NCBI GenBank assembly: GCA_964626665.1
Contig: CAZVGK010000013.1
Location: 15,628-79,627, forward strand
Reading direction: 5' to 3'
DNA length: 64,000 nt
From: an uncultured Gemmatimonadota bacterium
Lineage (GTDB): Bacteria; SM23-81; DAOVCL01
The translations under genes were made by a program, and so were the position numbers. Below the pieces are notes generated by a model. It was given only the letters and a program-made list of their open reading frames with translations. It was not told the DNA's origin and did not search any database. Positions 6,721 to 37,337 of the stretch are shown piece by piece. Each line of letters starts with the position of its first letter. Position 1 is the first letter of the stretch.

Positions 6721-6761
6721 AGCTTTTTGATTTTAAAGGGCAATTTTATTAGGTGAGGATA

Positions 6762-8879: not shown

Positions 8880-8965
8880 GTGCCCAGGAGCGTGGCCCGG
8901 GAATTCTTTTTGTTGGGAGGGGGTTGTCTAAGATCCCCTGGTGAATGCTCAACATATTAGAGGAG

Positions 8966-10999: not shown

Positions 11000-11380
11000 A
11001 TGGAGAAGAAATATAGCGTTAGCGATGAGCTCAAAGGGAGAACCTATAATTTTGCCTTGAGAATTCTAAGACTTGGCAGGTTGTTGCCAAATACTGAAGA
11101 GGGCAGGATAGTTAGGAGACAGGTTTTCAAAGCAGGCACTTCAGTAGGGGCCAATCTGGAAGAAGCCGATGGTTCCTTAAGCTTAAATGACTTCATATAC
11201 AAGGTGGACATCGCCTTTAAGGAGGCGAAGGAAACCAGATATTGGTTGCAGATGATCATTGATGCAGGGTTTATCCCTCAAAAGAGGGTGTCACCAGATC
11301 TGGAAGAGTGTGTAGAGATCATCAAAATCTTGTCGACCATAATCTATAGGAGTTTAAAAAGGAAGAAAACTAAGATCTAA
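11000..11380 (+). CDS. Four helix bundle protein (TIGR02436 / 23S rRNA IVS protein-like)
   Basis: 126 aa: RTYNFALRIL...RQVFKAGTSVGANLEEA...DFIYKVDIAFKEAKETRYWL...EIIKILSTI. Confidence 0.92.
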   Translation: MEKKYSVSDELKGRTYNFALRILRLGRLLPNTEEGRIVRRQVFKAGTSVGANLEEADGSLSLNDFIYKVDIAFKEAKETRYWLQMIIDAGFIPQKRVSPDLEECVEIIKILSTIIYRSLKRKKTKI

Positions 11381-11421: not shown

Positions 11422-12969
11422 ATGCTCTGTACTCCTGAACATATAAAAGATTTGGATTACTCCAGGGACCTTGGTTCTCCGGGGGAGTATCCCTTTACCC
11501 GGGGGATCTATCCCTCTATGTATTGCGGCAGGCTCTGGACAGTGCGTCAGTATGCGGGATATGCGACAGCCCGGGAATCCAACGAGAGATATAGGTATCT
11601 TTTGGCCCAGGGCCAGACAGGGCTATCGGTGGCCTTTGATCTCCCTACACAGATGGGCTATGACTCAGACCACCCCTTATCCGAGGGGGAGGTGGGTAAG
11701 ACAGGGGTGGCCATCGATTCCCTGGAGGATATGGAGACCCTCTTCGCGGGGATCCCCCTAAATAAAGTAAGCACCTCAATGACGATAAACGCTACCTCCC
11801 CTATCCTCTTGGCGATGTATATCACCCTGGCCGAGAAACAGGGGGTAAAGAAAAGTTTGTTGGCGGGTACAGTGCAGAATGACATTTTGAAGGAATACAT
11901 CGCCAGAGGCACCTACATATTTCCGCCCGCACCATCTATGAGGCTTGTGGTGGATACATTTGAGTATTGCGGTGAGAACCTTCCAAAGTGGAACACCATA
12001 TCGATCTCCGGCTATCACATCAGGGAGGCAGGGGCGACAGCCGTCCAAGAGCTCGCCTTTACCTTGGCCAATGCCATAACTTATGTGCAGGCAGCTATTG
12101 ATCGGGGGTTGGCCGTCGATTCCTTTGCCCCGCGCCTTTCTTTCTTCTTCAATGCCCATAACAATTTCTTTGAAGAGGTGGCCAAGTTCAGGGCTGCCAG
12201 GCGGCTTTGGGCAAAGCTTATGAGGGGGAGATTTAGGGCCAAAAACCCCAAGTCCTGGGGGTTGAGGTTTCATACCCAGACGGCGGGTTCTACCCTAACT
12301 GCGCAACAACCGGAGAACAATGCCGTAAGGGTGACCATGCAGGCGTTGGCCGCAGTCTTCGGGGGGACGCAGAGCTTACATACCAACTCGCTCGATGAGG
12401 CCCTGGCCCTGCCCAGTGAGGATGCGGTGAGGTTGGCCCTGCGCACCCAACAGATCATCGCCTATGAAAGTGGTGTTCCCCAGGTTATCGACCCCCTGGG
12501 AGGTTCCTATCTCATAGAGAGGCTTACCAATGATATTGAGGAGGGGGCCAGGGAGTATATAGACAAGGTGGAAGCGATGGGTGGAGCACTGCGGGCGATC
12601 GAACTCGGCTTTTTTCAAAAGGAGATTCAGGAAAGTGCCTACAAATATCAAAGGGAGCTAGAGGCCAAGAAGAGGGTCATCGTTGGGGTAAACGAGTTTG
12701 TGGCTGAGGGGGGAGAAAAGCCAAGGGAGACGCTAAGGGTAAATCCAGAGGTGGTCAGGGAACAGCGGGCCAAGTTACAGGCTTTGAAGTCCAGGAGAAA
12801 CCAGCCAGAGGTGGAGACATCCCTCAGCCAACTGCGCGCCGCGGCCAAGGGACAGGGCAACCTTATGGGGCCCATCCTTAGATGCGTAAGATCCTACGCC
12901 ACCTTAGGGGAGATCTGTGATGTATTGAGGGAGGTCTTTGGGGAGTATAAGGAGAAGAGGGTAGTATAG
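11422..12969 (+). CDS. Methylmalonyl-CoA mutase large subunit (N-terminal substrate-binding domain)
   Basis: WTVRQY and KEYIAR give Tyr and Arg at the 89/207 positions. Clear paralog of 2259..3905 but about 35 aa shorter at the N-terminus. Confidence 0.92.
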
Positions 12970-17749: not shown

Positions 17750-18796
17750 ATGGTTGGTATAGTAGGATATGGATCATACCTTCCCAGGTATAGGATAAAA
17801 GTGGAGGAGATTGCTCACCAATGGGGAGCGGACCCAGAGGGCATAAAAAGGGGGCTTCTCTTAAGGGAGAAGACCGTTCCCGCCCCTGATGAAGATGCGA
17901 TCACCATTGCAGTTGAGGCCTCCAGGAATGCTCTTAAACGGGCCGGTATAAAGCCAAGTGAAATAGGCGCTGTCTATGTGGGTTCGGAATCCCATCCTTA
18001 TGCAGTAAAGCCCTCAGGCACAATCGTCGCTGAGGCCCTGGGGATAACCCCTGAGGTCCATATTGCCGACTACGAGTTTGCCTGTAAGGCAGGGACTGAG
18101 GCTATGTGGGTGGGGCAGGGCTTGGTGAAAGCAGGGGAGGTCAAGTACGCCTTATCGGTGGGTGCGGACACATCCCAGGGAGCACCTGGGGATGCCCTGG
18201 AATACTCGGCATCAGCCGGGGGATCAGCCTTTATCTTTGGCCAAACCGGGGTGGTGGCAGAGGTTGTCGCCACTTACTCCTATGCCACCGATACCGCCGA
18301 CTTCTGGAGGCGGGAGGGTGCCTTCTATCCCCGCCATGGAGGCAGGTTTACCGGTGAGCCCGCCTATTTCAAGCATATCTTGGGTGCGGCCAGGGGGATT
18401 ATGCAAAAGGCCGGCCTTAAACCTGCCGATTTCGCTTATGCCGTCTTCCATATGCCCAATGGCAAGTTCCCGTTAACTGCGGGCAAGAGGCTTGGTTTTT
18501 CCCAGGAGCAGCTTGACCCTGGTTGGGTAGTGCCGTTGATGGGGAACACCTACTCAGGCTCATCACCAACCGGTTTGTCTGCTACCCTCGATGTGGCCAA
18601 GCCAGGTGACTTTATCTTACTCACCTCATTTGGCTCGGGCGCAGGTAGCGATGCATTTGTCTTCAAGGTTACGGAGAGAATCGAGGAGGTAAGGAACAGG
18701 GCGATGAAAGTGAGGGAGCTTTTGGAGGATAGCCCGATATATTTAGATTATGGTCTCTACGCCAAATTTAGGGGGAAGATAATTATGAATAGATAG
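17750..18796 (+). CDS. Hydroxymethylglutaryl-CoA synthase, archaeal type
   Basis: [26 protein letters not shown] (Glu), FACKAGT (Cys), FHMPNGKF (His), [15 protein letters not shown]. Confidence 0.9.
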
Positions 18797-18844
18797 GCGG
18801 GCTCTTAGCTATGAAGACGTAAGTCACTAAGAATATGGGAAATT

Positions 18845-18978
18845 AACCCGAATTATTAATGGACTGAAGACGAATTGACATAACCCTTTCAAGGCTAATG
18901 ATTTATGTGCTTGTTTTGTAGGGACAGACATTTATGTCTGTCCGCCTCGTGTCTTTGGGGCATGAATAATTAGGGGTT
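18845..18978. mobile_element. MITE-like element with AACCCGAATTATT ends enclosing a GTAG-REP
   Basis: aacccgaattatt ... aataattaggggtt, with gtagggacagacatttatgtctgtcc inside. The same right end occurs at 23141-23157 and about 6703. Confidence 0.5.
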
Positions 18979-19005
18979 AGAATCTTAGGAGAAAGCGAGG
19001 GGGAA

Positions 19006-20154
19006 ATGAGAGATGTCGCCATTATTGGGGTGGGAATGACAAAGTTTGGGGAGCTATGGGACAGTTCGATCCGCGATATTTTTGCCGAGGCCGCGCTTAA
19101 GGCCATAGCCGATGCTGGGGTTGACCACATAGACTCGATGTATGTGGGCAATATGACCGCTGGTTTGTTTGTGGGTCAGGAGCACATCGGGGCCCTGATG
19201 GCCGACTACTTGGGAGTTGTCCCCATTCCGGCAATAAGGGTTGAGTCCGCCTGTGCCTCTGGGGGGATGGCCTTACGCCAGGGTCTTATGGAGGTGGCAT
19301 CTGGGATGAGCGATATTGTCCTTGCCGGAGGGGTGGAGAAGATGTGGGATGGTGTAGATGTGACCTATGCTTTGGCCACGGCCAGCGACCAGGAGTATGA
19401 GGTCTATCAGGGGATGACTTTCCCCGGCCTATATGCAACGATCGCCCGCGCCCATATGCACCGCTACGGGACAACGAGGGAACAGCTTGCCTTGGTGGCG
19501 GTGAAAAATCACAAAAATGGCTCACTAAACCCCAATGCTCAATATCAGATGGAGATTACGGTTAATACGGTGCTCAACTCCACTAAGGTGGCAGATCCGC
19601 TTACCCTGCTGGATTGTTCCCCGGTGACAGACGGCGCCGCCGCGGTGATACTTTGTCCTCTTGCAGAGGCAAAGAGATATACTGACCTGCCTGTGAAGAT
19701 ACTTGCCTCCGCAGCGGCCACGGACTATCTGGCTTTACATCAGAGGGAGGACATAATCGCTCTGAAGGCAGTTAGGGTCTCAGCGGAGAAGGCCTTTAAA
19801 CAAGCGGGGTTTGGGCCGGAAAAGATCGATGTGGCCGAGGTTCATGATTGTTTCACCATCGCAGAGATATGTGTAATCGAGGAGATGGGTTTTGCAGAGA
19901 GAGGGAAGGGGGGGGAATTTACCGCAAGGGGTTATACAGCCCTCGATGGCAAGATTCCCATTAATCCCTCGGGGGGCCTCAAGTCCAAGGGGCACCCCGT
20001 GGGAGCTACCGGGGTAGCGCAGGCGGTGGAAATAGTGGAGCAACTCCGTGGCGATGCCGGCAAGCGGCAAGTAAAGGGGGCCAAGATTGGACTTGCCCAA
20101 AATATGGGTGGTTCAGGGGCATCGTCAGTGGTTCACATATTTGGAGTTGCTTGA
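19006..20154 (+). CDS. Acetyl-CoA acetyltransferase (archaeal/SCP2-type thiolase)
   Basis: [42 protein letters not shown]. Confidence 0.92.
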
Positions 20155-20405
20155 GTCATTGCGTAGTTAGGTCATTGAGTCTGTAAGTATACGAGAAATT
20201 GGCAGAAAGTGAGAAACTTAGTCAGATACAAATGGACGGGCAGGAAGCTGGAGCAGAAGTTGGCCTCATCCTTATGAAGCATTGGCTCTAAACTATGTCA
20301 TCGGAATGATTTCGCTAAACCCTACACCACTTTGACTCAACAACTCAATAAACTCAATAGACTCAACAGATTCAATGACTCAATAGACTCAACGCACTCA
20401 ACAAA
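20151..20405 (+). repeat. TTGAGTC / GACTCAA inverted arrays enclosing a decayed four-helix-bundle remnant
   Basis: The left arm 20151-20181 contains the thiolase stop codon. The right arm 20334-20405 has about 8 units. The interior encodes NWQKVRNLV, compared with WQGARDLV in the intact gene at 20853. Confidence 0.75.
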
Positions 20406-20416
20406 CGGAGGTTATT

Positions 20417-20824
20417 ATGCCAGTGCCAAGGTATACAAGGGAGATACCCCAAAGATTCAGGCTGGAGGCGAGTAGGTGCAAATCCTGCGGTAAGATTCTT
20501 TTCCCCCCTAGGCCTGTCTGCCCACAATGTGGGTCAAAGGAATTTGAAAAAGTGCGGTTGAGCGATAAGGGGAAGGTGGTTACCTTCACGGTAATTAGGG
20601 TTGCTTCTGAGCAGTTCGCTACCCAGACACCCTATGTGGTAGCTGTGGTGGAGTTGAGTGATGGAGCGCGCATAACCACCCAAGTGGTGGACTGCCGGCC
20701 GGAGGAGGTAGAGATTGGGAAGTCGGTGCGGCTTGTTTTCCGGAGGGTTCAAGAAGAGGGCAAAACAGGCATCCTCAATTATGGGTACAAGGGTGTGTTG
20801 AGTCAGGACTCATTGAGTCGTTGA
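20417..20824 (+). CDS. DUF35 Zn-ribbon/OB-fold protein (thiolase partner)
   Basis: C..CG...FPPR..CP.C, GKVVTFTVI, TPYVVAVVEL..G. Confidence 0.93.
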   Translation: MPVPRYTREIPQRFRLEASRCKSCGKILFPPRPVCPQCGSKEFEKVRLSDKGKVVTFTVIRVASEQFATQTPYVVAVVELSDGARITTQVVDCRPEEVEIGKSVRLVFRRVQEEGKTGILNYGYKGVLSQDSLSR

Positions 20825-20828
20825 GTCA
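20798..20828 (+). repeat. Left arm: TTGAGTC array overlapping the DUF35 stop codon
   Basis: ttgagtcaggactcattgagtcgttgagtca encodes LSQDSLSR*. Confidence 0.85.
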
Positions 20829-20852
20829 TAGAAATCCTTGGGCCGCCGAGTG

Positions 20853-21236
20853 ATGAAGATCAAAAGATTCGAAGACATAAAAGCTTGGCAAGGGGCAAGG
20901 GATTTGGTCAACAAAATATATAAGGCCATAAGGGGTAATAATGGCTTTTATCGAGATTTCAGGTTCAGGGAACAGATACAGGCGGCAGGTATTTCTGTGA
21001 TGTCTAATATCGCAGAAGGGTTTGCCAGGAGTAGCGACCGTGAGTTTAAAAGGTTCTTATGGATAGCTAAAGGTTCTCTCGCAGAGGTTCAGAGTCAACT
21101 GTGGGTGGCGCTTGATCAAGGGTATGTCACCCAGGATGATTTTGATAGGCTATATGCAAAGGCGGAAGAAGTGGCCAAGCTAATTTCCGGTTTCATCACC
21201 TATCTCCTCGACTCAAAGACCCAACGGACTCAATGA
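20853..21236 (+). CDS. Four helix bundle protein (23S rRNA IVS protein / bAvd-like)
   Basis: FEDIKAWQGARDL...QIQAAGISVMSNIAEGFAR...EF.RFL.IAKGS..EV.SQL..A.DQGY...KLISGFI. Confidence 0.93.
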   Translation: MKIKRFEDIKAWQGARDLVNKIYKAIRGNNGFYRDFRFREQIQAAGISVMSNIAEGFARSSDREFKRFLWIAKGSLAEVQSQLWVALDQGYVTQDDFDRLYAKAEEVAKLISGFITYLLDSKTQRTQ

Positions 21237-21322
21237 CTCAGAACTCAAAGACCCAATAGGCCCAACGGACTCAGAGACTAAATGACTCAACGACTCAATA
21301 GACTCAATGAACTCAACAAACT
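21210..21322 (+). repeat. Right arm: about 13 GACTCAA-type units
   Basis: gactcaaa gacccaacg gactcaat gactcaga actcaaa ... gactcaac gactcaata gactcaat gaactcaac. Confidence 0.92.
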
Positions 21323-21325
21323 GAG

Positions 21326-22933
21326 ATGTATCGCATAGAATCAAAGATAAATCCAAACAGCCCAGAGTTTAAGGCGAACAAGGAACATCTGAAAGGGCTG
21401 GTTAGAGAGCTTAAGGATAGGCTAAGGGAGGTGAAGGGGGGTGGCCCTCCCAAGATGCATGCAAAGCATAAGGCCCGGGGTAAGCTGTTTGTCAGGGATA
21501 GGCTGAAGTTGCTTTTTGACCCCAATACGCCGTTCCTCGAGTTGTCTCCTCTGGCCAGTTGGGGTATGCATAACAATGGGCATCCTGGGGCGGGGATAGT
21601 GACGGGGATAGGGGTGATTCATGGGAGGGAGGTTATGGTTGTGGCCAACGATGCCACAGTGAAGGGGGGAACCTATACCCCTGAGACCATCAAGAAACAT
21701 ATAAGGGCTCAAGAGATAGCTATGGAGAACAGGTTGCCCTGCATATATCTTGTGGATTCAGGGGGGATTTTCCTCCCCCTGCAAGCCGGGACCTTTCCTG
21801 ATAAGTATCATTTTGGGCGCATCTTCTACAACCAGGCCCGGATGTCGGCAATGAATATCCCCCAGATCTCCGCAGTGGTGGGGTTCTGTACTGCTGGTGG
21901 GGCATATCAACCAGCGATGAGCGATGAAGTGGTCATTGTTAAAGGAGAGGGGACGATCTATATTGGGGGCCCCCCTCTGGTTAAGGCGGCAACCGGTGAG
22001 GTGGTAACTGCCGAGGAACTTGGTGGTGCAGATGTGCATTGCCGCATATCGGGGGTGGCTGACCATTACGCCGTAGATGATGCCCACTCTATGGAGATAA
22101 CAAGGAATATCGTGCAGAATCTATCTCCGCCAAAGAGGTTCGAACTGGGGCGCACCCAACCAGAGGAGCCCGCATATGACCCGGAGGAATTATATGGCAT
22201 AATACCGAAAGGTTTAAAAAAGCCCTTTGATATGCGGGAGGTAATAGCAAGGATTGTTGATAGGAGTGAGTTCCATGAGTTTAAGGAGTTATATGGGACT
22301 TCACTCGTCTGTGGGTTTGCTCGGATTATGGGCTATCCCGTGGGCATACTCGCTAATAATGGAGTGCTCTTCTCAGAGTCCTCTCAAAAAGGTGCCCACT
22401 TCGTCTCTTTGTGTAGTGTGAGAAAGATACCACTTATATTCTTGCAGAATATTACCGGTTTCATTGTCGGTAAGAAATATGAACACGGTGGAATAGCAAA
22501 AGATGGTGCGAAGTTGATCCATGCTGTCGCCAATGCTGATGTGCCCAAATTTACTGTGATTGTCGGTAATTCCTATGGAGCAGGTAATTATGGTATGTGC
22601 GGCAGGGGGTATGACCCCAGACTCCTCTTTATGTGGCCAAATGCCAAGATATGTGTAATGGGTGGGAAACAGGCGGCTGGTGTGCTTACTGATATCAAGG
22701 TAAGGGAACTGAAGAGAAAAGGAGAAAAATTAACTCCAGAAGACATAGAGAGAATAAGAGAACCCATACTCAAGAAATATGAAGAAGAGTCCAACGCCTA
22801 TTATTCTACTGCCCGGTTATGGGATGATGGAATAATTGATCCCTTGGATTCTCGTAGTGTGCTGGGACTGGGAATATCAATGTCCCTCAATGCTCCCATA
22901 CCAGATCATAGATTTGGGGTCTTCAGGATGTAA
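21326..22933 (+). CDS. 3-Methylcrotonyl-CoA carboxylase-like carboxyltransferase (beta) subunit
   Basis: [60 protein letters not shown]-terminus. Confidence 0.9.
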
Positions 22934-23045
22934 GGATTTAGATGGAGTTTAATGTAGGAAGGACAGTGAAATATTGAATTGATCGGGCAGAATATGATAT
23001 GGAGACAGCAGAGAGTCTTTTTCGAGCAAGGGAATATCCCTATTC

Positions 23046-23157
23046 AAACCGAGGTGGCAGAACCCCTGTTCTGCCCCAGTCAGATCAGGGGATCTGACCA
23101 CTCAGCTATTGGTCATTCGAAGCCACCGTATGGGTTCTGATGAATAATTCGGGTTAG
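23046..23157 (+). repeat. About 100-bp dispersed repeat containing a GTGG-type REP doublet
   Basis: Aligns by eye at roughly 80% to the reverse complement of 50867-50967. Hairpins GGCAGAAC/GTTCTGCC and GTCAGATC/GATCTGAC. Confidence 0.85.
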
Positions 23158-23179
23158 ATGAGGTTAAGGAGGCATTTAG

Positions 23180-23497
23180 GTGGTTAAGGCGGGGATTGTA
23201 GAAAAAATCAAGAGGTTTATAGAGGTAATTGAAAGGCAAAATATAAAAGTTGCTAAAGCAGTCTTATATGGGTCACAAGTCAATGGGAAAACATACGAGT
23301 ACGGCGATATTGATGTTGCTATCGTTTCTGCTGATTTTGGGAATGACCGATATGAGGAGGGCACCAAACTTTTTGAACTCGCCTACAAGATAGATCCAAG
23401 AATAGAGCCAGTTCCAATTTCGCTGAGATCTTATGAGGAAGATACTTGGGTCCCCCTGATTTACGAAATCAGGACAAAGTGGGTGGAGATAAGTTAG
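23180..23497 (+). CDS. Minimal nucleotidyltransferase (MNT) domain protein, no adjacent HEPN partner
   Basis: AVLYGSQVNG....GDIDVAIVS.DF...RIEP. Confidence 0.85.
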   Translation: MVKAGIVEKIKRFIEVIERQNIKVAKAVLYGSQVNGKTYEYGDIDVAIVSADFGNDRYEEGTKLFELAYKIDPRIEPVPISLRSYEEDTWVPLIYEIRTKWVEIS

Positions 23498-23532
23498 TGC
23501 CCGGCATAAGCCAATCAAGAATTGTAACTATC

Positions 23533-23693
23533 TAGTGTCTGTCCGAAAACTACCAAAATTGAAATATTTCCGTCATTGCGAGCGACTGAAAGGAGCGAAG
23601 CAATCTCCTGGAAATAAAAAGATTGCTTCGTCGTTCGTTCCTCACTCCTCCCAATGACATTTCCCTCAAAACTGGAATTCCGGACAGACACTA
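23533..23693. mobile_element. MITE-like element with 13-bp perfect TIR containing a GTCATTGCGAG-type palindromic repeat
   Basis: TAGTGTCTGTCCG ... CGGACAGACACTA. Inner gtcattgcgag..gaagcaatct..agattgcttcg..caatgac at 23572-23658. Confidence 0.7.
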
Positions 23694-23824
23694 TCTATAG
23701 AGTTCGGGGGATAGGGATGAGGCTGGCTAACCTTAGATCAAGGGGAGTGAAGGCTCGTTTGGGTTTTACATAGGTTCTGAAGCATGGGTAGGGATTGCTA
23801 CATAACCGAAGGGGGAGCGCGCAA

Positions 23825-24604
23825 TTGGAAACTATACTCTACACAATAGATGGGTTGGTGGCCAGGATTACCTTTAATAGGCCAGCGGTGCATAACGCCT
23901 TCAATGACCAGATGATTCAGGAGTTAACTGATGTTTTTGCCGAGATCAAGGGGCGGGAAGATGTGCGGATCGTCGTTTTGACCGGAGAGGGGAAGTCGTT
24001 CTCTGCAGGGGCGGATATAAATTGGATGCGTAAAGTCAAAGATTATTCGTTTGAAGAGAATGTTAAAAACTCGCTTAAGCTCGCCGATTTGTTTTATCTC
24101 ATTTACTCTTTGCCAAAGCCAACGATTGCCCGGGTTAATGGGGCAGCTATCGGAGGGGGGACCGGATTGGTGGCCGTTTGCGACATCGCTATCGCCTCAT
24201 CGGCCGCCAAGTTTAGTTTTTCCGAGGTAAAGCTGGGGCTTGTCCCTGCCGCCATATCACCTTATGTAATAAAGAAATGTGGTGAAGGGAGGACCAGGGA
24301 GTTCTTTCTGACCGGGGAGAGGCTCTCTCCGGAGAGAGCCTTGCTTGCTGGGCTCGTCAACCAAGTGGTTCCCCCGCAAGAACTTGATAAGGCGGTGGAT
24401 GACTTAGTAAACCAACTGCTTTCCAGTGGACCTCAGGCCACAGGGATATGCAAGGACCTTCTCAGGGATGTGCCCAAATTAAGCCTTGAGGAGGCAAGGG
24501 GGTATACGGCACGGGTGCTTGCTGGCTTAAGGATATCTGATGAAGGCCAAGAGGGGACGATGGCGTTCCTGGAGAAGAGAAAGCCAAATTGGAGCTCTGA
24601 ATGA
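23825..24604 (+). CDS. Enoyl-CoA hydratase family, methylglutaconyl-CoA hydratase-like
   Basis: FNRPAVHNAFN, FSAGADINWM, GAAIGGGTGL.AVCD, FSEVKLGLVPA.ISPYV, EGQEG..AFLEKR.P.W. TTG start after GGGGGAG. Confidence 0.88.
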   Translation: METILYTIDGLVARITFNRPAVHNAFNDQMIQELTDVFAEIKGREDVRIVVLTGEGKSFSAGADINWMRKVKDYSFEENVKNSLKLADLFYLIYSLPKPTIARVNGAAIGGGTGLVAVCDIAIASSAAKFSFSEVKLGLVPAAISPYVIKKCGEGRTREFFLTGERLSPERALLAGLVNQVVPPQELDKAVDDLVNQLLSSGPQATGICKDLLRDVPKLSLEEARGYTARVLAGLRISDEGQEGTMAFLEKRKPNWSSE

Positions 24605-26094
24605 TTAGGAAGTTGCTCATAGCTAACCGTGGTGAGATAGCGGTGCGGATTATCAGGGCCTGTAGAGAGCTGGGCATTCAGATGGTGGGGGTCTATTCCA
24701 CAATTGATAAATCCTCCTTATGGGTGAGGCTGGCCGATGAATCCGTATGCATCGGGGAGCCACCGCCGGGGGAGAGCTATCTTAATATGGACCGTATCAT
24801 TGAGACGACTCAAAAGGTTGGGGCAGATGCCATCCATCCTGGTTATGGTTTCCTCGCCGAGAACCCTGATTTTGCCCAAAGATGCGAGGAGGCGGGGATC
24901 ACATTTGTGGGGCCAACATCAAAGGCACTCAGGTTGGTGGGAGACAAGGTGGCAGCCCGCCAAACGATGCAGAGGGCAGGAATATCCATAATCCCCGGTA
25001 TGACAGTTGTCGGCAAGAAGGCGGAGGATTTTCGCCAAGCCATAGCCAAGCTGGGTTATCCAGTTCTGGTGAAGGCCTCACTCGGCGGCGGCGGTAAGGG
25101 GATGCGCATTGTGAGGGATGAGAAAGAGCTGGACATGGCCGTAGCCGCCGGGAGGCGTGAGGCGAAGTTCGCCTTTGGTGATGAGTCGGTCTATCTGGAG
25201 AAGTATATTGAGGAGTCGCATCATGTGGAGTTTCAGGTTTTGGCGGATGAATTTGGCAGGGTGGTTCATCTATTTGAACGGGAATGTTCTATCCAGCGCA
25301 GGTATCAGAAAGTGGTGGAGGAGACCCCTTCACCGGCTCTAACTGATGAGCTACGGAGGGAGATGGGAGAGGTAGCCAAGCTAGCGATAAAGTCAGCCGG
25401 ATACACCAATGCGGGGACGGTGGAATTTCTGTTGGACCAAGAGGACAATTTCTTTTTCCTGGAGATAAACGCCAGGATCCAGGTGGAACATCCGATAACG
25501 GAACTCACCACGGGGATAGACCTCGTCAGACAACAGCTCTTAATTGCCTCAGGAGAAAGGTTGACCTTAAGCCAGGAGGGTATCTCTCCCCGAGGGCATG
25601 CTATAGAGACACGGATTTATGCTGAAGATCCCACCAGCGATTTCCTCCCCTCCCCTGGCAAGATCCGATGGCTTAAGGAGCCCCAGGGCCCTGGGATTAG
25701 GGTGGATTCAGGTGTCTATTCAGGTTATGAGGTAACCCCTCACTATGACCCTATACTTGCGAAACTCATTGCCTGGGGGAAGACAAGGGAGATTGCCAGG
25801 AGGAGGATAATCCAGGCTCTGAAGGGATATGTAATTTTGGGGATAACCACCTCCATTGGGTTTCTTATAGATGTTTTGGAGCATTCCCAATTCGTGGCGG
25901 GTAAGACCCATACTAATTTCATTAGCAAAAATATGAAGGGGTGGCGACCAAATGACCAGGCTTTGACCGAGGCACTTATCGCCGCGGCCATAGTTTCATC
26001 AGAGGCCCCTGCGGCTACCAAGGTCTTAGCCGCTCAAGCTACCTCACCCTGGCAGGAACTGGGCAAATGGGAGATGGGCAGTGGTGGAATATAG
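24601..26094 (+). CDS. Biotin carboxylase subunit (methylcrotonyl-CoA carboxylase alpha-like)
   Basis: KLLIANRGEIA, IHPGYGFLAEN, GGGGKGMR, ERECSIQRRYQK, EINARIQVEHPITE. Confidence 0.93.
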   Translation: MIRKLLIANRGEIAVRIIRACRELGIQMVGVYSTIDKSSLWVRLADESVCIGEPPPGESYLNMDRIIETTQKVGADAIHPGYGFLAENPDFAQRCEEAGITFVGPTSKALRLVGDKVAARQTMQRAGISIIPGMTVVGKKAEDFRQAIAKLGYPVLVKASLGGGGKGMRIVRDEKELDMAVAAGRREAKFAFGDESVYLEKYIEESHHVEFQVLADEFGRVVHLFERECSIQRRYQKVVEETPSPALTDELRREMGEVAKLAIKSAGYTNAGTVEFLLDQEDNFFFLEINARIQVEHPITELTTGIDLVRQQLLIASGERLTLSQEGISPRGHAIETRIYAEDPTSDFLPSPGKIRWLKEPQGPGIRVDSGVYSGYEVTPHYDPILAKLIAWGKTREIARRRIIQALKGYVILGITTSIGFLIDVLEHSQFVAGKTHTNFISKNMKGWRPNDQALTEALIAAAIVSSEAPAATKVLAAQATSPWQELGKWEMGSGGI

Positions 26095-26584
26095 GTTCGT
26101 CTACGCGGGCAAAACTTATCGGGTAAACGTTGAAGCAGCCACGGGATCGTGGTTGATCAGCATCGATGACGGAGAGCCTTTAGAGGTTAAGCTAATTTCT
26201 TCCTCCCCGTATTGCCTCTCCTTCTCAATGGGGGGTAGGCCCATAACCGCCTATGCCCTGCAAGGGGATGGCCGGAGGTACATCTCCATAGATGGCGAGT
26301 CCTTTTCCTTTGAGTTGGAGAAGAGTAGGGCAAGGAGGGCCCCTGGGGTAGCGGCCCAGGGGGGAGGAAATGTGGTCAGTTCCCCGATGCCCGGCTTTTT
26401 GGTGAAGGTGCTCGTCTCAGGTGGTGACAAAGTAGAGGTAGGGCAAACGCTGGCCATTGTTGAGGCAATGAAGATGGAGAATGAGCTGAAGTCACCGATT
26501 AAAGGGATAGTAAAGCGGGTAAAATTCGAGGAGGGCAACCAGGTGGACGCCCTCCAACCCATTGTAGAGTTGGAAGCTGTTTAG
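26081..26584 (+). CDS. Biotin carboxyl carrier protein
   Basis: SPMPG...EAMKMENE. Confidence 0.92.
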   Translation: MVEYRFVYAGKTYRVNVEAATGSWLISIDDGEPLEVKLISSSPYCLSFSMGGRPITAYALQGDGRRYISIDGESFSFELEKSRARRAPGVAAQGGGNVVSSPMPGFLVKVLVSGGDKVEVGQTLAIVEAMKMENELKSPIKGIVKRVKFEEGNQVDALQPIVELEAV

Positions 26585-26852
26585 TCTACGAGTCTAAAAG
26601 TCTAATAGTCTAAGAGATTGAGGTCTTTCCATTAGCTATAAGGGATGTTGAGAAGTTTCGCAGAGGTTTTAGGAAGAAGAAGTCCTAAAAGGGTTTGGAT
26701 ATCATCTGGGAATAACCGAAGGGTTGATCTTTTAATATCACCGTAATTGGAGGACTGGCGTTGCGGGGAGAGACAATAAAGATATTGAATTCCCTTTGCA
26801 CAATGGTGCCCCACCACTTTTAGACTTTTAGACTCTTAAGCTGCTAAGCTGC
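26581..26852 (+). repeat. AGTCTAA / TTAGACT inverted arrays enclosing a decayed four-helix-bundle remnant
   Basis: The left arm 26581-26613 contains the BCCP stop codon; the right arm is 26818-26852. Interior fragments read IEVFPLA, (A)EGFR..S, YHLGITEG and GETIKILNSL. Confidence 0.65.
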
Positions 26853-26859
26853 TCCCTAC

Positions 26860-27719: not shown

Positions 27720-28502
27720 ATGGGGTATAAAAGCTTGATTGTGGAGATTGCCGACCAGGTAGCCGTGGTGAAGATAAATCGTCCCCCGGTAAACGCGATG
27801 AATGCCGAAGTGGCCCGGGAACTGGAGGGGGCAATGCATAACCTAAATGACAACGCCGATGTGAGGGTAATCATCATTACCGGTGAAGGCAAGGCCTTTG
27901 TTGCTGGCGCGGATATTGCGGCTATGTCCAAGTTCAATTCACTCCAAGCAAGGGAGTTTGGGAAGTTAGGATGTCGTGTGCTTTCCTATATTGAGAATAT
28001 GGAGGAGCCGGTAATTGCCGCGGTAAATGGGTATGCGTTGGGAGGCGGTTGTGAGATCGCTATGGCCTGTGATATCAGGATAGCCTCCTCCAAGGCGCTC
28101 TTCGGCCAGCCAGAGCTGAAGCTTGGGCTTATCCCCGGATGGGCGGGCACCCAAAGGATGTCACGCATCCTGGGGATTGGCAAGGCGAAGGAGTTGATAT
28201 TTACCGGCGACTCCATTGATGCTCAGGAGGCTCTCAGGATTGGACTGGTGAACAGGGTTGTTCCCCCTGAGGAGCTGATGGACGAGGCCCAAAAATTTGC
28301 TCAGAAGATGTTAGAAACGGGACCCACTGCCCTTAAGCTGGCCAAGACCGTTATAAATCGGGGTCTTGACTCTAACTTCACCACTGCGTCATCCTATGAG
28401 TCGGAGGCCTTTGGGGTCTGCTTCTCTACCCCCGAGGTTAAGGAGGGGATGCAGGCATTCTTAGAAAAGCGTAAACCAAAATGGAGTTTATTGAGTTCGT
28501 AG
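27720..28502 (+). CDS. Enoyl-CoA hydratase (crotonase)
   Basis: AFVAGADI, AAVNGYALGGGCEIAMACD, FGQPELKLGLIPGWAGTQR. Confidence 0.93.
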   Translation: MGYKSLIVEIADQVAVVKINRPPVNAMNAEVARELEGAMHNLNDNADVRVIIITGEGKAFVAGADIAAMSKFNSLQAREFGKLGCRVLSYIENMEEPVIAAVNGYALGGGCEIAMACDIRIASSKALFGQPELKLGLIPGWAGTQRMSRILGIGKAKELIFTGDSIDAQEALRIGLVNRVVPPEELMDEAQKFAQKMLETGPTALKLAKTVINRGLDSNFTTASSYESEAFGVCFSTPEVKEGMQAFLEKRKPKWSLLSS

Positions 28503-28641
28503 AGTTTATTGAGTCTGTTGAGTTTATTGAGTTTTAGGATGTTGACTCAACGAACTGGGTGAACTCAAAGAACTGAGCTAACTCAATGGACTGTGCGGAC
28601 TCAAAAGACTGTGTTGACTCAATGAACTGAGTAGACTCAAA
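28484..28641. repeat. Empty cassette: TTGAGT array directly facing an ACTCAA array
   Basis: The left arm 28484-28535 supplies the crotonase stop codon. A spacer of about 8 nt is followed by the right arm 28543-28641, ending just before the RBS GGGAGGTG. Confidence 0.88.
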
Positions 28642-28653
28642 TGGGAGGTGAAT

Positions 28654-29985
28654 ATGAATTTCGCCGAAAGGCTGGAGAATGTTTCGATAATTGGTGCCGG
28701 CGGTAAGATGGGCAGTGGGATCTCCGTTCTTATCGCCCAGGAGCTGGCCAAGCTTAAGGTCAAGAATAGAGGCAAGACCTATAGATTAAACCTAATAGAT
28801 GTTCAGGATGCTGCCCTTGATGGGCTACAGACCTTTATCAAGGCCCAGACGACAAAGTTAGCCGAGAAGTCCATCGTGGCCTTGAGATCTGTGTATGCCG
28901 ATAGGGAAGACCTCGTGGAGAACTGGGAGGTCATCAATGCCTTTGTCGATGACACCTTTTCAATCATTAGGTTAGGCACCGATTTAAAGATGGCCGAGAA
29001 ATCCCAATTGGTCTTTGAGGCAATAGTGGAGGATGAAACCATCAAGATCAAGGTGCTCAAGGGGCTCAAGGGGCTTTGTGGAAGGGAGACATTTTTCCTG
29101 ACCAACACCTCCTCAATACCCATAGGTTTCCTTGATGAAGAGGCGGGGCTTGGGGGGAGGATAATCGGATATCACTTCTACAATCCGCCGGTGGTCCAGA
29201 GGCTCGTTGAGGTGATCACCGCCCAGACAACCCACCAAGAGCTTCAGGAGGTTGGTGCAGAGTTAGGGAAGAGGCTTCGTAAGAAGCTGGTCCCCTCCAA
29301 TGACATCTCCGGCTTTATGGGGAATGGCCATTTTATGAGGGATGGCCTCTACGGCATTGGTGAAGTGGAGAGGTTGCAGGGTGAATACTCCCTACCTGGA
29401 GCCATTTATCTTATGAACCGCATCTCCCAGGATTTCCTTATCCGCCCAATGGGCATCTTTCAGCTCATCGACTATGTGGGGGTGGATGTCTTCCAGTGCA
29501 TCTTGAAGGTGATGAGGAAGCACTTGAGGGATGATAGCCTACAAAGCGACCTCATCGATCGGTTGGCTGAGAAGGGTGTGTTAGGTGGCCAAAGGGCTGA
29601 CGGCTCCCAAAAGGATGGCTCCCTCAAGTATGACCATAACAGGCCAGTAGGGGTCTATGACCCGGGGAAGGGTGAGTATGTACCAATTGCCGGGAAGTGG
29701 CAAAAGGATTTGGATGCGGCAATTGGCCCCCTCCCTGCGGGATTTAGCCCCTGGAGGAAGCTCCTGCGGGAGCCGGGGAAGGAGGAGAGGCTTGTGGCCT
29801 ATTTCCGTAATCTGTTCGATGCCCAGACCTTAGGTGCTGAGCTGGCCCGGGGTTATCTCTTGCGCACCAAGGAGATAGCCAACCAACTTATTGCGGATGG
29901 GGTGGCCAACTCAAAGGAGGATGTCAACGCTGTGCTCACCAACGGGTTCTATTGGCTTTATGGGCCGATCAATGATTACATTTGA
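28654..29985 (+). CDS. 3-Hydroxyacyl-CoA dehydrogenase family protein
   Basis: IIGAGGKMGSGI (Rossmann fold), VFEAIVE, TNTSSIPI, GYHFYNPP, FQLIDYVGVD. Confidence 0.88.
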   Translation: MNFAERLENVSIIGAGGKMGSGISVLIAQELAKLKVKNRGKTYRLNLIDVQDAALDGLQTFIKAQTTKLAEKSIVALRSVYADREDLVENWEVINAFVDDTFSIIRLGTDLKMAEKSQLVFEAIVEDETIKIKVLKGLKGLCGRETFFLTNTSSIPIGFLDEEAGLGGRIIGYHFYNPPVVQRLVEVITAQTTHQELQEVGAELGKRLRKKLVPSNDISGFMGNGHFMRDGLYGIGEVERLQGEYSLPGAIYLMNRISQDFLIRPMGIFQLIDYVGVDVFQCILKVMRKHLRDDSLQSDLIDRLAEKGVLGGQRADGSQKDGSLKYDHNRPVGVYDPGKGEYVPIAGKWQKDLDAAIGPLPAGFSPWRKLLREPGKEERLVAYFRNLFDAQTLGAELARGYLLRTKEIANQLIADGVANSKEDVNAVLTNGFYWLYGPINDYI

Positions 29986-30128: not shown

Positions 30129-31376
30129 ATGAAATCGTTCAGCAAGAAGATATTTGTGACTGCTGGCTACAACACCGTCTCGCTGGGCTCCGGGAGAAAG
30201 GAGTTTCATCCGAAGGAGCCCAGGCCAGGCATTGAGCATTATATTAAAGAAGCCGGTCAGGGGGCCTTGGCTCAAATCAACGATCCAGCCAATATCGATG
30301 AAGGGGTAATCACGAATTTTATGATGGGCAGGTATAACCGCCAGGGCAACCGGCCCGGGTTCTTCCCAATGATTGACCCAGCCTTGCGATATAAACCGGC
30401 TACAGGTGTCGAGGGGGCCTGTGGCTCAGGAGGGTTGGGACTCACTGTGGCCTGCAAAACCATACTCGCCGACCTCGCAGATACTGTACTTGTAGTGGGA
30501 TTTGAAGTCCAGAATACGGTGAAGGCGGTCTATGGGGCGGACTATCTCGCCGGAGCGGGTTGGTATGCGGGAGAGAGGAAGCAGGGCCATGCCCATTTCT
30601 TTCCGGCACAGTTCTCGGACAGGGCTGGGGCCTGTTTTGAGAAGTTTGGCAAGGAGAAGGTAAGGGGAGGGATGGCCCACTGGTATGTTCAGGCCATAGA
30701 GAATGCGCGCAGGAATCCCAAGGCCCAAGAATACCACAACTCCACCAAGGACCTCTATGCTACCGCGATGACACCGCCAAACCCAAAGGTTTTCTGTGAG
30801 CACATCAATGTATACGACTGTTCGAAGGTCTCTGATGCCGGGAATGCCCTCATCTTCGCCAGCGAGGAAGGGTTGAAGAAATTGGGCGTCTCTAAGAAAG
30901 ATGCCGCCGAGGTGATAAGCTGGGGCCAATGTGAGGATGACATTACCAAGCCCCCCCCTGATCTCACCAAGTTGACCACTTCGGAGAAGGCCGTTAAATT
31001 AGCCTATGAGGGGGCAGGAGTTTCCATTGATGACATCGGAGTTCTTGAAGTTCATGATTGTTTTTCCATTAGTGGCGTATTAGCAATGGAAGCTGTGGGA
31101 GCTGCCGGATATGGTGAGGGAGCAAACTTTGTGAAAGAAGGAAGAACCCACATTGATGCCGAACTCCCCACTAATGCAACTGGTGGGCTTATGGGATATG
31201 GGCACCCGGTGGGCGCCTCAGGGGTAAGGCAGGCGGTGGACATATTGCATCAACTGACGGGTAAGGCCGGCGATTGCCAGGTGAAGATCGGCTCCGATCG
31301 GCCCTATGGGATGACCATATCGATGGGGGGGAGCGACAAAACGGTGGTGGCAATGGTATTCAGAAAAGCCTCATAG
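30129..31376 (+). CDS. Thiolase family protein (SCP2-like)
   Basis: [39 protein letters not shown]. Confidence 0.88.
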
Positions 31377-31482: not shown

Positions 31483-31487
31483 GGGGG

Positions 31488-31574
31488 GAATAGGGGACGG
31501 TGGTGCAGAAATTGTCAAACGCTTTCGGCTTGCCCTCCCCTATGTCCTTAATTTCTATTTTTCAGCCTGACCCC
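31488..31574. repeat. About 87-bp repeat (AATAGGGGAC...CCTGACCCC), copy 1 of 3
   Basis: Near-identical at 33154-33241 and 37122-37209. Internal ATAGGGGA/TCCCCTAT stem. Confidence 0.92.
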
Positions 31575-32416
31575 ATTGATGACCCGTTAGGTGACGGCGT
31601 CTCGTCTATTGGGGCTAAGAGGGTATCTCGCTTTAGGAGACGACTTAACCAGATGGCCCCAACAACTAAAATTACGAGACTGAAAGTAACGACTGGCCAT
31701 GGTAAATGCTCCATTTCTTCCAGCATCTCACGCTTGTATCCCATCCTCGATAGTAACGACATGTAGAGAAACCACGAACTGTTTCCCACTGCATGACTAA
31801 CGATCGAAGGAATGAGAGATCCTGTTCTCATGAATAACCACGCGGACGCAATCCCGAACAGAAACGCCCCTACCGCTTGCCATGGGTTTAGATGAAACAG
31901 TGCGAATATGGTAGCTGATGCCAGAACTGCTCTTGTTTTCGAGTATCTACCAAGAAAACCCTGGAGCATCCAGCCCCTAAAATAGAATTCCTCTGCCAAA
32001 GGTGCTACGACGACTGCTGCCAAGAATGAGGCGGTGCGATTCTCCCCCATCATACTTTCAAAGAATTTCTGTAATGATTCTGGCATGGGTACCATTCCGG
32101 CGAGTTCCCCCAGAACAACCGAGGCCCCAAGTGACGCAATTATCAGAGGAAAGACGATTTGACCGGCGATAGGCTTTAGCGGATAGGAGATTCTCCAAGG
32201 TGTTCTCATAATTCGCAGGACAACAAACAGAGTCAGTGCCCAGGCAATAACCTGAACTGCCAGAAATGATGTAGATGCATCAAGGTCAAGCAAGTGAACA
32301 AGTATCCACGCGCTGATAAAGAAGACATAGAAAAGGGCTGAGATTTCTATCGCTTTCTGAATGGTCAGATACTTTGTGGCCACTTGAGCATTTTCGCTTT
32401 GTTGATCCTTGATCAC
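31562..32416 (-). CDS. CPBP family intramembrane glutamic endopeptidase (CAAX protease/Abi), cassette gene
   Basis: APLAEEFYFRG, FALFHLNPWQ, SIVSHAVGN. The cassette begins at GTTAGGC (32472-32478). Confidence 0.92.
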   Translation of the reverse strand: MIKDQQSENAQVATKYLTIQKAIEISALFYVFFISAWILVHLLDLDASTSFLAVQVIAWALTLFVVLRIMRTPWRISYPLKPIAGQIVFPLIIASLGASVVLGELAGMVPMPESLQKFFESMMGENRTASFLAAVVVAPLAEEFYFRGWMLQGFLGRYSKTRAVLASATIFALFHLNPWQAVGAFLFGIASAWLFMRTGSLIPSIVSHAVGNSSWFLYMSLLSRMGYKREMLEEMEHLPWPVVTFSLVILVVGAIWLSRLLKRDTLLAPIDETPSPNGSSMGSG

Positions 32417-32471
32417 ACTGCCCCCCGGTTCTGTGCGGCTATCAACCCGTTCTTGATGCTCTCTGTTCGTC

Positions 32472-32543
32472 GCCTAACGACCAAGCTCACCTGCCGCTAT
32501 GAAGCGTAGCGAAACAGCGGTCAGGTGGAGCGATTGGTCATGG
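32472..32543 (-). other. attC site
   Basis: Minus strand CCATGAC-caatc-GCTCCACCTG...CAGGTGAGC-ttggtc-GTTAGGC. The left core site overlaps the upstream stop codon, and the left L box has an extra base. Confidence 0.85.
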
Positions 32544-32987
32544 TAAATGCTCCAAATCATCTAAATCCTTATGCCTCCCGCTTGCTTTCTTGTTCTTTTT
32601 GAGATCGTCAATCGATATGACGTTGACGGATATTCCATCAATATCAACTGTTTCCCGTCGAGAATAACATTCTGCAAAATCTACTCCAGATGCCCCCGTG
32701 ATGACCTCTATTCGCACTGGTGGATACCCCATTCGAATCACCTTGTCTTTTCCCAAAAACAAACTTTCTGAAATATCACTGTTAGACATACCAAAGTCAC
32801 AAAACACTTTACTCATCTTACGAGCGTTATCTGGAGTGACGGCTATCCAGACATCCATATCACCTGTTGCGCGCGGATAACCATAATAACCAACAGCATA
32901 TCCGCCAACCAGTAAATATTTAACGCCTTGCGAGTTCAGAAGTCTCAAAAAATCTTTGAAGTCTGGATGTAACCCTATCTTGTCCAT
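32538..32987 (-). CDS. Nucleotidyltransferase-fold protein (cassette gene)
   Basis: DFKDFLRLLN..GVKYLLVGGYAVGYYGYPRATGDMDVW...KKASGRHKDLDD. Confidence 0.85.
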   Translation of the reverse strand: MDKIGLHPDFKDFLRLLNSQGVKYLLVGGYAVGYYGYPRATGDMDVWIAVTPDNARKMSKVFCDFGMSNSDISESLFLGKDKVIRMGYPPVRIEVITGASGVDFAECYSRRETVDIDGISVNVISIDDLKKNKKASGRHKDLDDLEHLP

Positions 32988-33126
32988 ATACCATCCTTCG
33001 ATTCAATTCGATAGCCTCTAATCGTTCCTGTGCATTTTTAGAAAGCCAGAAAGCCTTTTCATCGTCTATGTCATCAAGAGTCCCGACCGACAATATCTTT
33101 TTATCGAGCCTCGGCAACTTATCCAT
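32920..33126 (-). CDS. Small hypothetical partner of the nucleotidyltransferase (probable TA pair)
   Basis: 68 aa, FWLSK..QERLEAIEL, RBS AAGGAG, 68-nt overlap with the downstream gene. Confidence 0.7.
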   Translation of the reverse strand: MDKLPRLDKKILSVGTLDDIDDEKAFWLSKNAQERLEAIELNRRMVYGQDRVTSRLQRFFETSELARR

Positions 33127-33153
33127 TTACTCAAACTCCTTGGTTTTCATGGA

Positions 33154-33241
33154 GAAATAGGGGACGGTGGTGCAGAAATTGTCAAACGCTTTCGGCTTGC
33201 CCTCCCCTATGTCCTTAATTTCTATTTTTCAGCCTGACCCC
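33154..33241. repeat. About 87-bp repeat, copy 2
   Basis: Identical core to 31488-31574. Confidence 0.92.
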
Positions 33242-37209: not shown

Positions 37210-37337
37210 ATCGACTTATCCAAGCAACATCAGGATTGTGCAGATTCAATTCGTTCATCTTGAGCATAACGAAAAAAGCCACGAACCGTTCATCAACCTG
37301 CTGTTTGGACCATTGACAGACTTCGTCGATTGGCTGC

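Follow-up and report, generated by a model that had tools for sequence, protein, structure and literature searches.

What does an archaeal-type 3-hydroxy-3-methylglutaryl-CoA (HMG-CoA) synthase do beside the genes of a bacterial leucine-degradation pathway? This question is raised by a 64,000-nucleotide stretch of contig CAZVGK010000013.1 from an uncultured Gemmatimonadota bacterium, which is referred to here as the window. At positions 17750-26584, inside a long co-directional gene array, the window encodes an HMG-CoA synthase (HMGCS), an SCP2-type thiolase and a DUF35 protein (together, the trio), followed by 3-methylcrotonyl-CoA carboxylase (MCC) beta, a crotonase-family hydratase, a biotin carboxylase (BC) and a biotin carboxyl carrier protein (BCCP), all seven on the forward strand (Table 1). 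An initial annotation had offered three explanations: leucine carbon is routed to mevalonate, the trio runs in reverse and cleaves HMG-CoA, or the module runs backwards to isovaleryl-CoA. The second is favoured by the exclusivity and slot data reported below and is still unproven, while the other two are weakened. We put at about even the chance that the trio complex replaces HMG-CoA lyase in anaerobic leucine and isovalerate catabolism and works in reverse.

The trio is of the archaeal type

Genes of the window were taken from a list of open reading frames (ORFs) and from profile searches (Pfam, NCBIfam), and structural matches were sought in the PDB. The HMGCS scored 547 bits against TIGR00748, the equivalog of archaeal HMG-CoA synthase (cutoff 353), and 545 bits against NF003274 (cutoff 244). 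It matched chain I of PDB entry 6ESQ with 467 bits and 62.6% identity, and PhlA with only 217 bits. Its tetrad E80/C112/H234/N266 was invariant in 82 of 82 aligned homologues, 6ESQ chain I included. The thiolase reached 404 bits against 6ESQ chain A, 566 bits against PRK06064 (cutoff 420) and 587.6 bits against the METTL equivalog NF053570, slightly below the cutoff of 600. Its motifs are kept (Cys83 in CAS, HDCF at 280-283, and G-H330-P) and are conserved across about 80 homologues. The DUF35 protein gave 122 bits against 6ESQ chain E, and its CxxC...CxxC motif is formed by Cys21/24/35/38. Chains of 6ESQ were the best PDB matches of all three proteins. The composition initially annotated, an HMGCS with catalytic Glu/Cys/His, an SCP2-type thiolase and a DUF35 protein, was thus borne out, with all motifs intact.

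True archaeal-type complexes are told from the Friedel-Crafts acyltransferases PhlABC and MucABC, which have a homologous three-subunit architecture, by the E-C-H-N tetrad of the synthase and the CxS/GHx/HDxF motifs of the thiolase (PMC12960953). A Phl/Muc-type acyltransferase was rejected because the tetrad and the HDxF motif, both lost in PhlABC and MucABC, are retained here. By these sequence criteria, the trio is truly orthologous to the archaeal thiolase/HMGCS/DUF35 complex. At about 60% identity to the solved complex, the three proteins presumably also assemble physically, share a CoA-binding site and channel the intermediate.

The carboxylase is an MCC and the hydratase occupies the liuC position

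The carboxyltransferase (CT) subunit, or MCC-beta, scored 735 bits against MCC-beta of Pseudomonas aeruginosa (3u9r_B), 723 against human MCCC2, 484 against GCC-beta, at most 284 against the beta subunit of propionyl-CoA carboxylase (PCC) and 175 against GcdA. Glutaconyl-CoA decarboxylase was rejected as a reading of this gene on the difference between 175 bits (GcdA) and 735 bits (MCC-beta). The function of MCC-alpha is split, BC and BCCP being separate polypeptides that are not fused. As a side observation, the best PDB match of the CT was 9TPS (750 bits, likewise 535 aa), which its depositors named 'propionyl-CoA carboxylase beta subunit'; either this name or the substrate range of the MCC-beta-type subfamily is worth a look.

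The top NCBIfam matches of the crotonase were PRK07468 (258 bits) and PRK05674, a gamma-carboxygeranoyl-CoA hydratase of the AtuE-like kind (253 bits), neither of which reached its cutoff; in the PDB it came closest to unnamed crotonases. Its slot between MCC-beta and BC is kept in every related locus (160 loci), and from this position it is predicted to be a 3-methylglutaconyl-CoA hydratase.

Trio and HMG-CoA lyase exclude each other and share one slot

A metagenome scan with the MCC-beta of the window yielded 80 loci at 62-91% identity. The trio was present in 11 of them and genes resembling HMG-CoA lyase (HMGL-like) in 19, while no locus held the two together (one-sided Fisher test, P = 0.04, no correction for phylogeny). 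The HMGL-like ORFs encode PF00682 proteins whose top or sole NCBIfam match was the HMG-CoA lyase model NF004283, two of them above its cutoff.

Gene order shows where the two cluster types differ. In L150 (L numbers are labels of mapped loci) the order is CT-ECH-BC-BCCP-HMGCS-THL-DUF35-ACAD, where ECH denotes the enoyl-CoA hydratase-type crotonase, THL the thiolase and ACAD an acyl-CoA dehydrogenase. L137, L141, L151 and L167 have the order CT-ECH-BC-BCCP-HMGL-HMGL-ACAD, with flanking genes orthologous to those of L150. These four loci and L148 and L169 carry a CT that is 62-65% identical to that of the window, together with orthologous ECH, BC, BCCP and ACAD genes in the same order; in the place taken by HMGCS-thiolase-DUF35 in L150, L105 and the lineage of the window, they have one or two HMGL-like genes. 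A further trio-bearing locus, L095, is ordered HMGCS-THL-DUF35-CT-ECH-BC-BCCP-HCDH-thiolase2-ACAD-ACAD-crotonase (HCDH, 3-hydroxyacyl-CoA dehydrogenase), with gaps of mostly 5-50 bp. Because trio and lyase exclude each other and share a slot between orthologous genes, the lyase appears to have been displaced by the trio; judged from gene order, such a same-slot exchange is a classic signature of non-orthologous displacement.

The linkage of trio and MCC is conserved in bacterial genomes

Using the HMGCS as query and one genome per GTDB species, at least 593 relatives were found, of which the best 80 were mapped. All 80 are bacterial metagenome-assembled genomes (MAGs), with HMGCS identities of 66-80%. 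The view that such a trio would be unusual in a bacterium therefore did not hold, as at least 80 bacterial species-level genomes carry it. The order HMGCS-thiolase-DUF35 was kept in nearly all of the 80 loci. In 15 of the 80 genomes MCC-beta followed the trio directly on the same strand, usually with hydratase, BC and BCCP behind it. These 15 belong to WOR-3, Stahlbacteria, Cloacimonadota (L012 and L014), Zixibacteria, Coatesbacteria and further MAG lineages. Four Kapabacteria-like genomes have MCC-beta within 9 kb, and two ACADs abut the trio there, which brings the linkage to 19/80 genomes. Linked loci fall into at least three clades of a neighbour-joining HMGCS tree, and the adjacency of trio and MCC, which the initial annotation had wanted checked in relatives, is kept across several candidate phyla. 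An ACAD adjoins the trio in L043 and L056 (immediately 5' of HMGCS in both), L053/61/63/68, L095 and L150; none is specific for isovaleryl-CoA dehydrogenase (IVD) by sequence.

Other neighbourhoods were observed as well. In Ignavibacteria and Bacteroidota (L017-L021, L025-L031, L033, L037, L045, L047, L049, L054 and L082) an AtuA-family protein (PF07287; for example L029:18180-19550) and a separate AtuA ferredoxin-like ORF (PF23544; for example L018:14191-14508) come after the trio, and the five genes form a unit between housekeeping genes (miaA, prfB). With this unit the bacterial trio has two associations that do not involve mevalonate. AtuA belongs to an acyclic-terpene and Liu-related catabolic context, and its function is not known. 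One MAG (L023:6480-11044) has the order crotonase-HCDH-thiolase2-HMGCS, with neither the canonical partner thiolase nor DUF35 downstream; its HMGCS is paired with the second thiolase type, a homologue (71% identity) of the second SCP2-type thiolase of the window.

Neither HMG-CoA lyase nor reductase was found near the trio

In agreement with the initial annotation, the Pfam scan and tblastn detected no HMG-CoA lyase or reductase in the window. No match to PF00682 or PF00368 was obtained among window ORFs of at least 110 aa that are long enough for a lyase or reductase. As tblastn queries we used human HMG-CoA lyase and the catalytic domain of HMG-CoA reductase, both validated against the PDB: the lyase matched 2CW6 with 655 bits, and the reductase matched 1DQ8 with 1003 bits and the archaeal 6HR7 with 304. 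Nothing was found in the window, in L087 (8 kb more of the same contig) or in the 80 trio-centred genome loci, which were searched within ±10 kb of the trio and total 1.39 Mb (best E-values 5.7 and 1.8). The lyase query was sensitive enough to pick up HMGL-like genes of only 26-31% identity in the MCC-centred loci; class II reductases are detectable only weakly by the reductase query. A motif regex for lyase and reductase, the reductase motif DAMGxN included, was also negative but too narrow, as it would miss the VRDGFQ and PRDAMQ types. The 11 trio-bearing loci of the MCC-centred metagenome set had no lyase either.

The window does encode CitF next to a fused CitD(ACP)-CitE (Table 1), most likely an ordinary citrate lyase. 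Enzymes of the CitE family are also able to cleave other 3-hydroxyacyl-CoAs, and one from Mycobacterium tuberculosis acts as an HMG-CoA lyase; the CitE-family protein may be a remote alternative candidate for this activity.

A proposed pathway that ends in reverse HMG-CoA synthesis

In the pathway that we propose, isovaleryl-CoA would be oxidized to 3-methylcrotonyl-CoA by one of the neighbouring systems of ACAD and electron transfer flavoprotein (ETF), and the ATP-dependent MCC (CT, BC and BCCP) would carboxylate the latter to 3-methylglutaconyl-CoA. The crotonase in the liuC slot would add water to give (S)-HMG-CoA. The HMGCS, running in reverse, would then convert HMG-CoA and CoA to acetyl-CoA and acetoacetyl-CoA, and the latter would be channelled to the thiolase and thiolysed to two acetyl-CoA. 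The net reaction would be HMG-CoA + 2 CoA -> 3 acetyl-CoA + H2O. Since a lyase followed by CoA transfer yields only two acetyl-CoA and acetate, the complex would save one more thioester, or about 1 ATP per leucine. For an anaerobe that spends 1 ATP on the carboxylation, this would turn little or no net gain into a real one.

Lyase and HMGCS handle the same (S)-HMG-CoA isomer. Thermodynamically, the HMGCS step is a citrate-synthase-like condensation in which one thioester is hydrolysed. Thiolase condensation costs about +25 kJ/mol and thiolytic cleavage correspondingly yields about -25 kJ/mol. Because thiolysis offsets most of the cost of reversing HMGCS, the overall reaction should lie near equilibrium, within about 10 kJ/mol either way, and its reversal is less demanding than that of citrate synthase in the reversed oxidative tricarboxylic acid (roTCA) cycle. 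The channelling that pulls the archaeal reaction forwards could pull it backwards at a high CoA/acetyl-CoA ratio. We infer the catalytic direction, the substrate specificity of the ACADs and the hydratase, the formation of the complex and the energetic benefit.

The genes around the trio also count for reverse operation, as they are catabolic: ACADs, EtfAB, a CoA-transferase, PCC with methylmalonyl-CoA mutase (MCM) and epimerase, HCDH and thiolase. That the complex acts as a reversible 'HMG-CoA thiolase', displacing the lyase and conserving the extra thioester, throughout WOR-3, Stahlbacteria, Cloacimonadota, Zixibacteria, Coatesbacteria, the Kapabacteria-like and other uncultured anaerobes is a broader proposition, and we rate its chance a shade below even.

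Several points weigh against replacement of the lyase by a reversed trio. HMG-CoA synthase is regarded as physiologically irreversible, and we found no report of reverse activity of the archaeal complex in the literature. The searches covered individual loci, so that an unlinked HMG-CoA lyase, CitE-type lyase or reductase could lie elsewhere, and the CitF/CitD-CitE set in the window is itself a possible alternative source of lyase. Statistically, the exclusivity is of modest strength and takes no account of phylogeny, and most clusters with the trio are the nearest relatives of the window MCC-beta. From sequence alone, neither the hydratase nor the ACADs can be assigned to methylglutaconyl-CoA or isovaleryl-CoA. 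Finally, no RNA runs containing the region were found.

Other explanations for a trio beside MCC

The trio might simply be co-located with MCC without replacing anything. A lyase of the DRE-TIM or CitE type would then be encoded elsewhere, the trio would run forwards or lend only its thiolase to acetoacetyl-CoA, and its place in the cluster would reflect shared acetyl-CoA, acetoacetyl-CoA and HMG-CoA pools and common regulation. Such an arrangement would agree with the conventional irreversibility of HMGCS; the analysis covered 72 kb of the genome, the nearby CoA-transferase could re-activate acetoacetate, and a CitE-family lyase fused to CitD is at hand. It does not, however, account for the strict exclusivity and the equivalent slots of trio and HMGL beside orthologous MCC, ECH and ACAD genes, or for the lack of a lyase within 10 kb in the 80 genome loci and in the 11 trio-bearing metagenome loci. 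A forward trio combined with a lyase would moreover be a ketogenic cycle that wastes thioesters in an anaerobe, and the CitDE/CitF genes look like those of an ordinary citrate lyase, 33 kb off and on the other strand. We therefore consider mere co-location unlikely. Leucine-to-isoprenoid routing, in which MCC, hydratase and trio would supply HMG-CoA to an unlinked reductase and a lower mevalonate pathway, would match the native role of the archaeal complex (PMC12960953). It has a precedent in Trypanosoma brucei, where leucine reaches sterols via HMG-CoA and the bridge between acetyl-CoA and HMG-CoA is unidirectional (PMC5993337), and bacteria of the Fibrobacteres-Chlorobi-Bacteroidetes (FCB) group have some archaeal-type lipid genes (PMC7852524). 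Yet searches of the window and of the surroundings of all 80 genome trios gave no reductase, the surrounding genes are catabolic, and the orthologous lyase-bearing MCC clusters are plainly so. Cloacimonetes MAGs are reported to combine a complete methylerythritol phosphate (MEP) pathway with just two mevalonate-pathway enzymes, ACAT and HMGCS (Villanueva et al., PMC7852524), and relatives in that lineage (L012, L014) carry the cluster. The genome papers on Melioribacter and Ignavibacterium make no mention of mevalonate or HMG-CoA. Overall, a supply of leucine carbon to isoprenoids is improbable.

We think just as little of a route resembling alternative isovaleryl-CoA biosynthesis (AIB), which would lead from acetyl-CoA over HMG-CoA, 3-methylglutaconyl-CoA and 3-methylcrotonyl-CoA to isovaleryl-CoA. 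The hydratase would be reversed, MCC would act as a decarboxylase, possibly making ATP, and ACAD/ETF would act as a reductase; the product would be an iso-fatty-acid primer or released isovalerate. HMGCS and a LiuC-type hydratase do operate in this direction in AIB of Myxococcus (PMC5389471), and towards methylglutaconyl-CoA in the caprazamycin pathway (PMC9636800). Ignavibacterium album lacks branched-chain amino-acid biosynthesis (PMC3362086), and in Ignavibacteria the trio shares its operon with AtuA-like genes. Iso-branched lipids are common among FCB bacteria. Biotin carboxylases are reversible in vitro. Against these points, the Pfam scan of window ORFs revealed no gene of the AibA/B type (CoA_trans, PF01144) or the AibC type (medium-chain dehydrogenase/reductase (MDR), zinc-ADH). 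The carboxylase has the ATP-grasp BC and the BCCP of catabolic MCCs and is orthologous to those of the lyase-type clusters, and the route would be a poor electron sink for a fermenter.

Interruptions and repeats within the gene run

Strand and gene order were as initially annotated, with the trio upstream of MCC-beta, hydratase, BC and BCCP, but the carboxylase genes do not follow immediately: two small ORFs and spacers interrupt the run. A four-helix-bundle ORF of the '23S rRNA intervening sequence protein' (IVP) type parts DUF35 from MCC-beta and is probably an insertion outside the pathway. The 860-bp spacer between MCC-beta and the hydratase holds an NTP_transf_2 ORF; in relatives this spacer is filled by a cupin gene (PF07883, about 108 aa), which is absent from the window, and the NTP_transf_2 ORF is an insertion in that slot. 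Several spacers of 200-330 bp add further interruptions.

IVP-type ORFs are found at two places in the window (Table 1) and at L010:5007-5381, L012:12441-12827, L013:1426-1812, L014:12314-12691 and L015:5469-5852. From species to species they occupy differing intergenic slots of one conserved operon and give the impression of small genes inserting themselves between the members of an operon. A 100-nt element at 23046-23145, in the spacer 22934-23824, has an inverted copy with 84% identity at 50867-50966.

Arrays of a periodic 9-nt repeat, roughly GACTCAAYR, were observed at 20334-20413, 21242-21328 and 28481-28643, where they fill the leaders directly upstream of the start codons of DUF35, MCC-beta and HCDH. 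After the BCCP gene (26585-26620 and 26820-26859) the repeat unit is AGTCTAANA. Inverted copies are present at 28481-28533, and clustering of ACTCAA within the window is confined to the array sites. A regulator binding array, a translational leader or a slippage product are candidate roles.

The trio lies in an island for acyl-CoA catabolism

The trio is part of an island of about 40 kb for the catabolism of short and branched acyl-CoAs derived from amino acids, which the initial annotation had missed. Three ACADs and EtfAB are encoded 16-25 kb upstream of the trio cluster on the opposite strand. On the contig, the ACADs are followed by EtfB, EtfA and an Fe-S/flavin oxidoreductase of more than 1100 aa, partly beyond the start of the window. 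The ACADs are of the Bcd type, and searches of NCBIfam and the PDB did not assign any of them to isovaleryl-CoA; together with Etf they are candidates for the isovaleryl-CoA dehydrogenase step. Against TIGR03948 (butyryl-CoA:acetate CoA-transferase) the CoA-transferase of the island scored 330 bits, below the cutoff. The island also encodes an epimerase, an alanine dehydrogenase and a Cys/Met-family PLP enzyme. The downstream module of crotonase, HCDH and second thiolase is co-linear with the trio and MCC genes in L007, L013, L092 and L095.

Large subunits of MCM-type mutases are encoded twice (2259-4318 and the one in Table 1), only the first being followed by a B12-binding subunit; these mutases could act on isobutyryl-, isovaleryl- or pivalyl-CoA instead of methylmalonyl-CoA. 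The window also encodes LptD and proteins with a type IX secretion system (T9SS) tail. Taken together with the best relatives, these put the organism, an uncultured bacterium of salt-marsh sediment, close to WOR-3/Stahlbacteria among the FCB-allied candidate phyla. The ORF at 47145-50027, whose 960-aa product has a T9SS C-terminal sorting domain, contains about 12 tandem repeats of 162 nt (54 aa) at 47671-49721 on the reverse strand. Near-identical duplicated segments at 31484-34073 (99% over 300 nt between 31484 and 33151; 89% between 32108 and 33774) bear two Rce1-like CAAX protease genes, and a 95-nt element occurs for the third time at 37120-37214.

Table 1. Features of the window discussed in the text.
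Feature	Position	Strand	Evidence
Short-chain ACAD, first of three	429-1550	-	profile searches
PCC set, CT	6753-8306	+	
PCC set, BC	8945-10465	+	
PCC set, BCCP	10466-10960	+	
IVP ORF	11000-11380	+	
MCM-type subunit	11422-12969	+	
Short-chain acyl-CoA:acetate CoA-transferase-like, 431 aa	14252-15547	+	PF02550, PF13336
Archaeal-type HMGCS, 348 aa	17750-18796	+	TIGR00748, 6esq_I
SCP2/archaeal-type acetoacetyl-CoA thiolase, HMGCS partner, 382 aa	19006-20154	+	6esq_A, PRK06064
DUF35 scaffold protein, 135 aa	20417-20824	+	PF12172 (zinc ribbon), PF01796 (OB fold)
Four-helix-bundle '23S rRNA IVP' ORF, 132 aa	20838-21236	+	PF05635 (111 bits), TIGR02436
MCC-beta (CT), 535 aa	21326-22933	+	PDB and reference scores
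Small nucleotidyltransferase (NTP_transf_2) ORF, 105 aa	23180-23497	+	PF01909 annotation on identical contig
Crotonase-family hydratase, liuC position	23795-24604 (JGI start 23825)	+	PF00378 (202 bits)
BC of MCC, 497 aa	24601-26094	+	PF00289, PF02786, PF02785; PRK08591 (627 bits, cutoff 597)
BCCP, 167 aa	26081-26584	+	PF00364; EAMKM biotinyl-lysine motif in translation
Downstream module, crotonase	27720-28502	+	
Downstream module, HCDH	28648-29985	+	
Downstream module, second SCP2-type thiolase	30129-31376	+	
Citrate lyase set, CitF and fused CitD(ACP)-CitE	58076-60930 (CitD-CitE fusion 59701-60930)	-	

The gene order was repeated on independent JGI contigs, and the HMGCS recurs, identical in sequence, on an 80-kb JGI contig from salt marsh as well as in other independent assemblies. 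Twenty salt-marsh runs contain at least 92% of the sampled words of the region, and 18 of these 20 contain at least 98%. A chimera or artefact of assembly was ruled out by the independent contigs together with the synteny conserved in other species. No Rfam family exceeded its threshold in the window, and the number of sites found in a promoter and terminator scan of it, which is ill-suited to FCB-type promoters, was not above that in shuffled sequence.

Relation to known systems and implications

Three elements have been described before: the archaeal complex, the Liu pathway, and anaerobic isovalerate degradation by way of HmgL. The complex of Methanothermococcus thermolithotrophicus (6ESQ/6ET9; structure by Vögeli et al. 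2018, as cited in PMC12960953) resembles the trio in its best PDB matches, motifs, zinc ribbon and three adjacent genes. Here, in contrast, the host is bacterial, the operon is catabolic and stands beside MCC instead of the mevalonate pathway, and the proposed direction is reversed. With liuABCDE of Pseudomonas the cluster shares the order MCC-beta, hydratase, MCC-alpha (liuB-liuC-liuD), the associated ACAD and the catabolic context. It differs in that the window has no liuE/HmgL and carries the trio in this slot, in the split MCC-alpha, and in ACADs that are of the clostridial Bcd type with EtfAB, none being a recognisable IVD. The anaerobic isovalerate cluster of Desulfococcus multivorans has HmgL (PMC5109826), whereas the cluster of the window is without it. 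AIB of Myxococcus xanthus (AibA/B, AibC, MvaS, LiuC) likewise ties an HMGCS to Liu intermediates via methylglutaconyl-CoA hydratase, but its synthase is a bacterial MvaS, its decarboxylase is CoA-transferase-like, its reductase is of the MDR kind, and it has no biotin carboxylase, whereas the carboxylase of the window is biotin-dependent.

What would be new is a Liu-type pathway whose last step has been taken over by an archaeal-type enzyme complex, which is unproven. Full-text literature searches yielded no account that places a DUF35/HMGCS complex in leucine catabolism or has it run in reverse physiologically, although absence there is not proof. If the trio does run in reverse, this would be the first example in nature of an HMG-CoA synthase acting backwards, parallel to the reversibility of citrate synthase in the roTCA cycle. 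It would provide a near-equilibrium, channelled link between acetyl-CoA and HMG-CoA that metabolic engineering could use. The 'mevalonate pathway' genes of FCB-group MAGs, including those in the literature on the lipid divide, would then have to be read as catabolic. Reversal would also explain how energy-limited anaerobes can gain ATP from leucine or isovalerate; in the lyase route, the carboxylation ATP roughly cancels the substrate-level gain.

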